Made by a program: the position numbers. Shown here piece after piece: positions 1 to 2,897 of a stretch of 64,000 nucleotides of DNA; within the stretch, counting starts at the first letter, position 1, and each line of letters starts with the position of its first letter. This DNA is from Escherichia coli (GTDB taxonomy: Bacteria; Pseudomonadota; Gammaproteobacteria; Enterobacterales; Enterobacteriaceae). The stretch is from NCBI RefSeq assembly GCF_017348835.2, contig NZ_CP071375.1. One strand, written 5' to 3'.

Positions 1-2897
1 TACGACTGATATCTGCCCGCACCCAACACTCAAACAGGGCAATTAAAAATTTCCCCCACAGCTCTGCTGTCACCGAAGCGGCCGTCAGATCGCCCAGTTC
101 ATCAAATTCAAGATGGGGAATGAGCTGTACGGAGCGGATGCCCCGTTGTTTGAAATTGTGATAAAAATCGGCAGGTTGCAAAGCATCCTTATACTCTACA
201 ACCAGTTTATGCCTGTCCTCTTCAGCATCAATGACCTGACTTCCTGTCATGCGACTCTCTCAATAAATACGATAAGTTGATGTATATGCGTTACAGCAAA
301 CAGTATTGCGAGAGATAACACCGCGAGGGAGATCAAAAATTTGTCACGGACTACGTGAAATTGGGAAAAATCGCTATTCGTGACATCCATTAAATTGCGA
401 TTACGGGTGTAGTGCCAGAGGATCAGCGCCACGATGGCGAGGATGCCAGTCGAAATCCAGAATAACATGCCCGCCTGGTGCCAGTTGTGTTTGATAGCCA
501 ACGCCATCAACGCGCCGTAGCCCAGCATGGTACGAAACCACGCCAGTGATGTGCGCTCCGGCTGCAGTCCTGGGTCGGCAATGCGTCTGGCTTTGAGGCT
601 ATCCGGCATACAACACCAGTCCCATAACGATCACCGCCACGATCATCAATATTAAGCTGATGATTAATAAGCTGTTGGTGTAGGGCAGGTCCTCTTTCAG
701 ACGCATCGCTTTTTCATTGCGTAACCAGCGCAGGTAGCCATACATCGCTAACCCGCCGGAAAACAGACACAACAACAACGCCAGCAGTTCACGAATGACA
801 GGCGTGGCGAAATCTGGCGCAAGTTGATCAAGCCCAACCCCCGCCGCCAGAAATCCTAGTGCGGTACGGATCCACGCCAGAAAAGTACGCTCATTAGCCA
901 GCGAGAAGCGGTAATCGGGCGCTTCTCCAAGGCGGGAAATTTTCATTGTTGCTCCTTTGCAATTTCACTAACGCTCTACCTTTAGCAGTTTTTTTTAAGA
1001 ATTTCGTCCGCCCGTTTCCTGATATGCTTTTGCCATCCGCTACAAGGAGGTCAGATGGGTATCATAGCGCAAATTGACATCCTCCACGCCCTGAAGGACG
1101 TGGATCCCTGCTACGTTCAGGCTGTCGCCTGAATCATTTCGGTGGGTTCCTGCTTCAACGGGCGGCCTGACTGCACCATCCCTCCACAGGCAAGAACGGC
1201 GTGCCCCGCCGCTAAAATGTTACGAGCGCCGTTTACATCGGCGTTCGCTGTATATCCACATACCTGGCATCTGAATTTACTTTGTGACAGGCGATTTTCT
1301 TTCGCTGTATGACCACAGCACGCGCAACGCTGGCTTGTGTACGCTGGCGGAACAGCAAGCACCTGACCGCCACGCCAGAGCTGCTTGTACGCAAGCTGGC
1401 GGCGCATTTCATACCAGCCCTGATCCAGTATCGAACGGTTTAAACCTGATTTTGCCCGGACATTGCGCCCCGGCTGGCTGACCGTACCCGCTGCTGACTT
1501 TGACATGTTGCTGACCTTCAAATCCTCAATGACTATCATTGCGTGGTTTTTGCTGACGGTCGTTGTGACTTTGTGAAGGTAGTCCCTGCGGATATTTGCG
1601 GTACAGGAATGCAGTCGCTGTATTTTGCGTTTCTGCTTCTGCCAGTTATTGCTGAATTTGACCTTGCGGCTTAACTGTCGCTGAAGTCTCGCCAGCTTCT
1701 TCTGGTTTTTCTGAAAACTGTTTACAGGCTCAAAGACTGTGCCATCTGACAGCGTGGCGAGTTTAGCCACGCCAGCATCCAGCCCGACCATTGATGCTGA
1801 AGGGTGAACCGGAGTTGATACTTCACTTTCTGTCTGAATACTGATGTACCACTTACCGCAGGACTGGCTGACAGTGACATTTTTCACAACTCCCGTGACC
1901 TGACGGCTGTTCCGGTAGCGCATCCAGCCCAGTTTCGGCAGAAAAATACGGCTGTTTTCCTGATCGAGCTTAACGCCCTGCGGGTAGCGGAATGCATCAT
2001 TCTGTCCCCGCTTTTTGAATCGGGGAAAAGCAGCCCGATTCTGGAAGAAGTTTTTGTAAGCCCGCTCAAGGTCTTTCAGTGACTGTTGCAATGGCTGTGA
2101 GGGCGAATCTTTAAGCCATTGCGTTTCAGTGGCGTTTTTCCACTCAACCAGCCAGGAAGCCATTTTCCCATAAGGGATGTATTTATTACCGGCCTCATGA
2201 TTCTCATTCTGAAGCGCCAGAGCACGATTGAAAACGAAACGACATGCGCCTGCGAAGCGCCTCATTTCACACTCCTGTTGATCACCTGGTCTTAACTGGA
2301 ATTTAAATGCCTGTAGTCGTTTCACAGGCCAAATGATACTTTGGTCTGTGAAAAAAGAAACCGATATCCGGCGTGGAAGGCATTGTGTTTTCCTGATGCA
2401 TGTTCACCTGGTCTTTGTCACCAAATACCGACGCCAGATTTTTGACCATGACGCGACAGAAAAACTACGCACTTACTTTTCAAATGTATGTGCTGATTTT
2501 GAAGCTGAACTGGTTGAAATGGATGGCGAACCAGATCACGTCCATTTGTTAATTAACTATCCTCCCAAACTGGCGATATCCAGTCTGGTAAACAGCCTCA
2601 AAGGCGTATCGGGTAGGTGACTGCGACGAGATCGACCAGATATTGCAGTCAGGTATTACTACAAAGGCGTTTTGTGGAGTCCTGGCTATTTTGCCAGTAG
2701 CTGCGGAGGTGCGCCAATATCCGTCATCCGCCAATACATTGAACAACAGCAAACACCTGGTCAGGTGGAAAACCGCGCCTTATATCCCCGCCCTGAAGGA
2801 CGGGGTTTTACGGCGCACCGGATAAATTTGGTTATGCGCCGTCAGCCGTGCTAAAGAATACGGACCAGCACCCAACGGATGCCAGTCCACACAATTA

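Follow-up and report, generated by a model that had tools for sequence, protein, structure and literature searches.

The stretch of DNA examined here, referred to as the window, comprises 64,000 nucleotides from Escherichia coli (assembly GCF_017348835.2, contig NZ_CP071375.1) and matches strain PE164 with 100% identity across the query. Near its beginning, between yidH (599-946, minus strand) and a gene for a 6-phospho-alpha-glucosidase (2895-4217, minus strand), the chromosomal sequence contains a 1748-bp insertion sequence, identified below as IS609, at positions 1074-2821. Two divergent genes are found in it: tnpA, for the transposase, which is interrupted by a nonsense codon, and tnpB (insQ), for a protein predicted to be an RNA-guided nuclease. 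The features of the locus are collected in Table 1.

Identity and limits of the element

The limits of the element were defined by comparison with other copies, retrieved by megablast against 5426 complete E. coli genomes. Matches are present in 5079 of these, at a median of three places per genome and mostly with 95-99% identity; thousands of E. coli copies in which tnpA and InsQ/TnpB are annotated have 98-100% identity to the element. Eleven copies from nine E. coli loci have in common exactly the span given above and diverge beyond it; the comparison loci were ydcL-ydcO (K-12), yeaQ, a DUF3251 gene, a TetR-family gene, yfeD-gltX, yfaV-yfaY, yedK and hslO. An earlier reading of the sequence alone (the sequence-only reading) had placed the element at 1060-2830; it located the element correctly, with the true limits lying slightly inside, next to a target pentanucleotide at 2822-2826.

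All the compared copies end ...GGAGGATGTCAA on the tnpB-sense strand, with the cleavage-site TCAA (1074-1077, minus strand) at the terminus of the right end (RE). Subterminal hairpins at the left end (LE) and at the RE are in direct orientation and are kept in every compared copy. On the same strand the pentanucleotide upstream of the element is TTTAT (nine loci) or CTTAT (two loci). The unoccupied yidL site of strain M25631H reads CCAAATTTAT/TTTTAAAGG; since this site lacks the element yet keeps TTTAT, the pentanucleotide is a property of the target and the insertion does not duplicate it. Indeed, no repetition of TTTAT was found at the RE among the compared copies.

Nucleotide identity is about 98% both with the IS609 copy of K-12 and with the copy of strain STEC1575, which encodes an intact TnpA of 143 amino acids and is named by the NCBI Prokaryotic Genome Annotation Pipeline (PGAP) 'IS200/IS605-like element IS609 family transposase'. 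As the K-12 copy is the IS609 of the literature and the STEC1575 copy is assigned by PGAP to the IS609 family, the element is, by its sequence, IS609 of the IS200/IS605 family. Family membership and the guess of an IS609-like element, both made in the sequence-only reading, are thus borne out by copies, ends and PGAP naming, and the features that define the family are present: a Y1 HUH gene, subterminal imperfect palindromes in place of terminal inverted repeats, insertion at a specific target and near-identity to IS609.

The organization of the ends resembles that of IS608 from Helicobacter pylori, which also has subterminal hairpins at both ends, inserts 3' of a short specific target and produces no target duplication; the RE of IS608 likewise consists of a hairpin followed by 10 nt ending TCAA. 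The two elements differ in gene orientation and in target, which is TTTAT or CTTAT for the window element and TTAC for IS608. No further IS609 copy was found in the window. A 12-nt match to the target pentanucleotide plus the start of the LE (TTTATCCGGTGC) at 37881-37892 (minus strand) was rejected as a second element end and is ascribed to chance: it falls inside an open reading frame of 818 amino acids and the similarity stops after the 12 nt.

Table 1. Positions of IS609 and associated features in the window (LE, left end; RE, right end; CDS, coding sequence; TAM, target-adjacent motif)
Feature	Position	Strand	Remarks
IS609 element	1074..2821	-	tnpB-sense top strand is the window minus strand; LE at 2821, RE at 1074
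Target/TAM pentanucleotide 5'-TTTAT-3'	2822..2826	-	Adjoins LE; part of target DNA, outside the element
LE subterminal hairpin TCCCCGCCCTGAAGGACGGGG (plus-strand letters)	2785..2805	-	Direct repeat of RE hairpin; kept in all copies
RE subterminal hairpin	1083..1103	-	Also 3'-terminal stem-loop of the predicted omega-RNA; then 10 nt ending TCAA
tnpB/insQ, 402 aa, uninterrupted	1117..2325	-	D183 1777-1779, E267 1525-1527, D364 1234-1236
tnpA pseudogene, Y1 HUH transposase	2333..2764	+	ATG at 2333
In-frame TGA, codon 96	2618..2620	+	TTA (Leu96) in intact IS609 tnpA; next base C
14-nt inverted repeat, 93% complementary	2320..2353		Spans tnpB GTG (2325) and tnpA ATG (2333)
Predicted omega-RNA scaffold, ~147 nt	1074..1220	-	Overlaps last ~100 nt of tnpB and RE
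Predicted guide 5'-TTTGCGCTATGATACCCATC-3'	1054..1073	-	Starts at 1073 and runs toward yidH
yidL 3' remnant (AraC-type regulator gene)	2827..2898	+	LE-side target gene; PGAP partial CDS; matches intact yidL of M25631H

The tnpA pseudogene

The tnpA frame reads ...SLKGVSGR-TGA-LRRDRPD...SVIRQYIEQQ, with the TGA in frame with everything downstream. The HUH motif (H69-V-H71, 2537-2545) precedes the stop and the codon of the catalytic Tyr135 (2735-2737, in RQYIEQQ) follows it; because the stop falls between the two, any product would be without the catalytic tyrosine. The in-frame stop upstream of the segment with the catalytic Tyr, as described in the sequence-only reading, is thus confirmed, and it inactivates the gene, which that reading had called probably dead. 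PGAP agrees, since it annotates the identical sequence of PE164 as 'tnpA, IS200/IS605 family transposase, pseudogene, internal stop'. The protein repaired at this codon scores 147 bits with the NCBIfam model transpos_IS200. The lesion, L96*, is a T to G change at 2619 with respect to STEC1575, where codon 96 is TTA.

That the stop could be a mere sequencing error, or be private to this locus, was considered and rejected: the K-12, MEI003 and OkiPb01694 copies carry it elsewhere, and a 59-mer centred on codon 96 has exact matches with TGA in 2597 E. coli records and with TTA in 2329, which marks the codon as a long-standing and widespread polymorphism. About half of the IS609-bearing E. coli genomes have the TGA allele. 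TGA copies occupy four loci, namely yid (the window and AST215), ydcO of K-12, the DUF3251 gene and yedK; TTA copies occupy five, among them a copy in CP52E at the same yid locus.

A second alteration affects the natural stop of tnpA (2762-2764), which is TAG in STEC1575 and CAG in the window; therefore the frame stays open across the LE hairpin and on into the flank, in this case to 2854. Of the 10 copies in which the region is retained, 9 have CAG; in the hslO copy the region is deleted. Copies of the CAG type receive from PGAP the flag 'incomplete, missing C-terminus'.

The K-12 element, formed by insQ/ydcM and the tnpA pseudogene yncK/insP between ydcL and ydcO, has the same TGA at codon 96. 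It shares with the window element the ends, the divergent tnpA/tnpB arrangement and the high identity over 1748 bp, and differs from it by a few dozen single-nucleotide polymorphisms (SNPs) and by its site, which in the window is flanked by the start of yidI and the 3' end of yidL. A stop codon in the K-12 IS609 transposase and the inactivity of the element are already on record (Umenhoffer et al., PMC2891674), and Lee et al. 2016 (PMC5009759) report no IS609 insertions in K-12 mutation-accumulation lines.

The GTG of tnpB and the ATG of tnpA are only 7 nt apart, and the inverted repeat that spans them could mask either start codon in its mRNA or serve as an operator.

TnpB retains the features of an RNA-guided nuclease

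The tnpB product had been described in the sequence-only reading as a 402-aa protein with a zinc ribbon and RuvC-like motifs, and alignment to TnpB of ISDra2 from Deinococcus radiodurans bears this out. In a phmmer search residues 3-376 align to the ISDra2 TnpB structures 8H1J, 8EXA and 8BF8 (E=4e-52); the NCBIfam model guided_TnpB gives 382 bits, and the Pfam domains HTH_OrfB_IS605, OrfB_IS605 and Cas12f1-like TNB are recognized. The RuvC triad, aligned to the catalytic residues of ISDra2 TnpB, is formed by D183 (GLDAG), E267 (VIEDL) and D364 (NADVNGA), and the zinc ribbon by C334/C337 and C353/C356. Mutation of the catalytic residues had been named as an outcome that would overturn the earlier proposal; on careful alignment all three are intact, and the six substitutions that distinguish the window TnpB from the consensus of the compared E. 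coli copies do not involve the triad or the zinc ribbon.

The protein thus has the sequence features of the RNA-guided TnpB family, and nuclease activity is predicted for it. PGAP names the PE164 gene 'RNA-guided endonuclease InsQ/TnpB family protein', and IS609 TnpB is among the proteins purified in a screen of TnpB orthologues (PMC12781874). The resemblance to ISDra2 includes full-length homology, the D-E-D triad, the zinc ribbon and a predicted RNA across the tnpB 3' end and the RE with a guide taken from the flank; conversely, tnpA is divergent in the window and co-directional in ISDra2, and the TAM, deduced as TTTAT in the window, is TTGAT in ISDra2.

A predicted omega-RNA and its guide

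An omega-RNA had been expected on the minus strand at 1060-1250, across the tnpB 3' end and the RE, and a conserved, covarying structure is predicted at about 1220-1074. Its closing helix would pair ACAUUUU (1220-1214) with GGAUGU (about 1082-1077). The structure was modelled with relatives from plasmids of Salmonella, Klebsiella, Xylella, Shigella, E. coli and Methylophaga, whose TnpB identity is 62-93%. Every relative ends GGAGGATGTCAA, and the last ~150 nt show far more conservation than expected from the protein identities. With RNAalifold, ten sequences gave a consensus of 38 pairs in six helices; 95% of the alignment cells are paired, compared with 45-52% in controls with the partners shifted by one to three columns, and compensatory changes occur at seven pairs, compared with one to three in these controls. 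Three of the seven are in the RE hairpin, where they could equally reflect a DNA hairpin recognized by TnpA; the other four are in helices within and just downstream of the tnpB coding sequence. Folded alone, the window sequence of this region gives a z-score of -2.9.

The covariance-model search suggested in the sequence-only reading took the form of an Rfam scan at a permissive E-value. It returned nothing at gathering score and no match to a curated omega-RNA family; below threshold, HgcC (24 bits, with a gathering score of 50) and sot0042 matched at the expected place, at 1061-1184 and 1083-1244 on the minus strand. Both are archaeal RNAs that overlap tnpB 3' ends. In a promoter and terminator scan, two promoter-like sites were found versus 1.7 expected, that is, none above chance.

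The guide, which the sequence-only reading had drawn from the flank in the direction of yidH, is indeed predicted there, at the position listed in Table 1. With respect to yidI, whose ATG is at 1055-1057 on the plus strand, the guide runs antisense and covers the first six codons together with the region just upstream. No site combining TTTAT with the guide target was found in the window.

The yid locus carries a deletion between two target sites

Comparison of the flanks of the element (window 947-1073 and 2822-2898) with M25631H shows that about 4.5 kb are missing at the locus, comprising most of yidI, yidJ, yidK and most of yidL. On the RE side the flank consists of the first six codons of yidI and then the yidH-yidI spacer. 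In a genome with intact yidI, TTTAT directly precedes this retained flank on the element top strand. As each junction lies directly 3' of TTTAT in undeleted sequence, both are bona fide IS609 target sites. In CP52E the LE junction is the same and the RE junction is inside yidJ, next to GTTAC. A random deletion on the RE side was accordingly rejected in favour of an IS609-linked event, given the TTTAT before the flank in the undeleted reference and the GTTAC in CP52E. The simplest history is that of two IS609 insertions in the same orientation, one in yidL and one where yidI starts, which then recombined with each other; the alternative is an intramolecular deletion mediated by TnpA. Either history would also have changed the omega-RNA guide.

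Among the 5426 genomes, the yidI-RE junction is present in 288 and the LE-yidL junction in 302 (about 5%), so the yid insertion is a minority, polymorphic allele. The intact yidI site (TTTAT plus target) is found in 3716 genomes, in most of them with one mismatch to the window guide, at position 5.

Mobility and interpretation

The sequence-only reading had recommended checking whether other copies in the genome have an intact tnpA. The PE164 chromosome has IS609 at just two places, and the second copy, at the ydcL-ydcO locus (chromosome 2475156-2476863), has an intact insQ and TTA at codon 96; its tnpA is not intact, being inactivated by Y76* and a 1-nt deletion. In this strain tnpA has thus decayed independently in the two copies and tnpB has been retained in both. 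Judged from sequence, the window IS609 is non-autonomous and has no helper tnpA on the host chromosome. It could be mobilised in trans, because both its ends are intact, and the presence of TGA copies at four or more loci implies past mobilisation of this kind or gene conversion.

All this makes it very probable that the window contains a non-autonomous copy of the known IS609, with a dead tnpA and an intact TnpB, which is idle in this host. By analogy with the established TnpB mechanism (ISDra2, Geobacillus elements), from which the processing and cutting steps are taken, the tnpB transcript would be processed to the ~147-nt omega-RNA with a guide of ~16-20 nt from the flank (TTTGCGCTATGATACC...). 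The complex of TnpB and omega-RNA would then cut DNA in which TTTAT is followed by the guide sequence, as it is at a yidI site without the insertion and at the donor joint resealed after excision. Such cutting would favour retention or homing of the element, with intact yidI as the natural homing target. In PE164 the system would be idle, as neither chromosomal IS609 has a functional tnpA and the cognate target was lost with the yidI-yidL deletion; for these two reasons the element would sit still, as a polymorphic insertion-deletion allele.

Some points weigh against this interpretation. The omega-RNA, its 5' end and the activity of TnpB are all inferred. Guide position 5 is C and the commonest yidI allele has A, so that the natural yidI target may be poorly cut. 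The statement on the missing helper is confined to the host chromosome. Finally, in same-locus pairs where tnpA is dead, the ratio of nonsynonymous to synonymous polymorphism (pN/pS) of tnpB is 0.15-0.31, and this low value hints at a continuing constraint that a fully idle element does not explain.

Much of this was already known: earlier work has described IS609, its stop-bearing transposase in K-12 and the guidance of TnpB/InsQ by RNA, and PGAP annotates the locus correctly. The additions are modest and consist of the exact ends, the TTTAT TAM, the RNA model with its guide, the yid deletion between two TAMs, the population frequencies and the contrast between tnpA and tnpB. Their discovery value is little; their practical value is a clean annotation and a population picture.

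Alternative explanations for the retention of tnpB

A single argument, selection, speaks for domestication of TnpB, and it rests on the contrast between the two genes. tnpB is open in 11 of the 12 copies examined; tnpA bears at least four independent lesions (L96*; Y76* plus frameshift; the CP52E frameshift; a 248-bp deletion), and among 11 copies pN/pS is 0.25 for tnpB versus 0.77 for tnpA. Since tnpA has been lost time and again through separate lesions and tnpB has remained intact (pN/pS about 0.2), insQ and its omega-RNA might be kept by selection independently of TnpA. They could, for instance, form a small gene drive or an exclusion system, cleaving incoming or recombinant empty-site alleles (TTTAT plus the yidI start) and thereby stabilising the insertion-deletion allele; we consider this whole reading very unlikely. 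Domestication, whereby the host, after loss of TnpA, would keep TnpB and its RNA for its own use, be it in regulation, in defence as a nuclease or in a drive against incoming empty yidI alleles, draws on the same counts and on the same-locus pN/pS values, and we regard it as highly improbable. The sequence-only reading had taken the immobilised element with its retained TnpB as a candidate for a domesticated nuclease or regulator, and this part of it was not upheld. The gene resembles those of the TldR proteins, nuclease-dead repressors, in its TnpB origin and in having no working transposase gene alongside; unlike them, it has intact RuvC residues and intact transposon ends, its guide is not aimed at a promoter and is whatever flank adjoins the RE, different at every locus, and the insertion is neither conserved nor fixed, being present in about 5% of genomes. 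Moreover, TGA copies have moved or been converted, and the same-locus copy of CP52E carries a nonsense codon in tnpB (Q39*). The pN/pS values may also stem from past selection during transposition, from gene conversion, with which the mosaic SNP patterns among copies are consistent, or from the overlapping RNA, which constrains the tnpB 3' end; given also the small sample, the selection signal is a lead and not a finding. The repeated loss of tnpA with tnpB kept could nonetheless seed a test for selection on TnpB without TnpA.

Alternatively, the element might be a decaying relic in which tnpB has so far simply escaped mutation and functional RNA is not produced. The dead tnpA with its lost natural stop, the tnpB nonsense codon already present at the same locus in CP52E, the six substitutions of the window TnpB and the chance-level promoter scan all fit this view; it is unlikely, however, in the light of a pN/pS well below 1 for tnpB and not for tnpA, and of the perfect preservation of the RNA structure and the RE in the window copy. 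A further possibility, that the TGA is leaky or regulatory, would make the element weakly autonomous through some full-length TnpA produced by read-through. The base after the stop is C, and termination at UGA-C is weak in E. coli; the allele is moreover present in 2597 records and at no fewer than four loci (yid, ydcO, the DUF3251 gene, yedK), so TGA copies have spread. This spread is explained equally well by trans-mobilisation from TTA copies (2329 records) or by gene conversion, read-through would place Trp instead of Leu, and K-12 IS609 with the same TGA showed no transposition in the two K-12 reports (PMC2891674, PMC5009759). Among the explanations considered, we give this one the lowest chance. 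For recoding of the TGA, as selenocysteine or otherwise, there is no indication, and the intact relatives encode Leu at the codon.

Related sequences on plasmids

IS609-type tnpB genes, 80-93% identical and with the GGAGGATGTCAA end, are found on large conjugative plasmids of Salmonella Infantis, Klebsiella and Xylella. No annotated tnpA was found beside them in the PLSDB tables, which omit pseudogenes, so that remnants are possible. Other plasmid genes, from Shigella sonnei, E. coli and Klebsiella, encode TnpB proteins with 64-69% identity to that of IS609 and have a 3' segment of ~130-170 nt nearly nucleotide-identical to IS609 (window 1100-1260); these segments then end in a different, longer RE hairpin. 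Such near-identity suggests either a strong constraint on the RNA or recombination that swaps omega-RNA modules between insertion sequence types. Finally, positions 1801-1827 of plasmid NZ_CP026754.1 agree over all 27 nt with the RE hairpin region (window 1077-1103). The match lies inside a coding sequence annotated as astA (heat-stable enterotoxin EAST1), beside a fragment of an IS256-family transposase, and is probably a remnant of an IS609 end.

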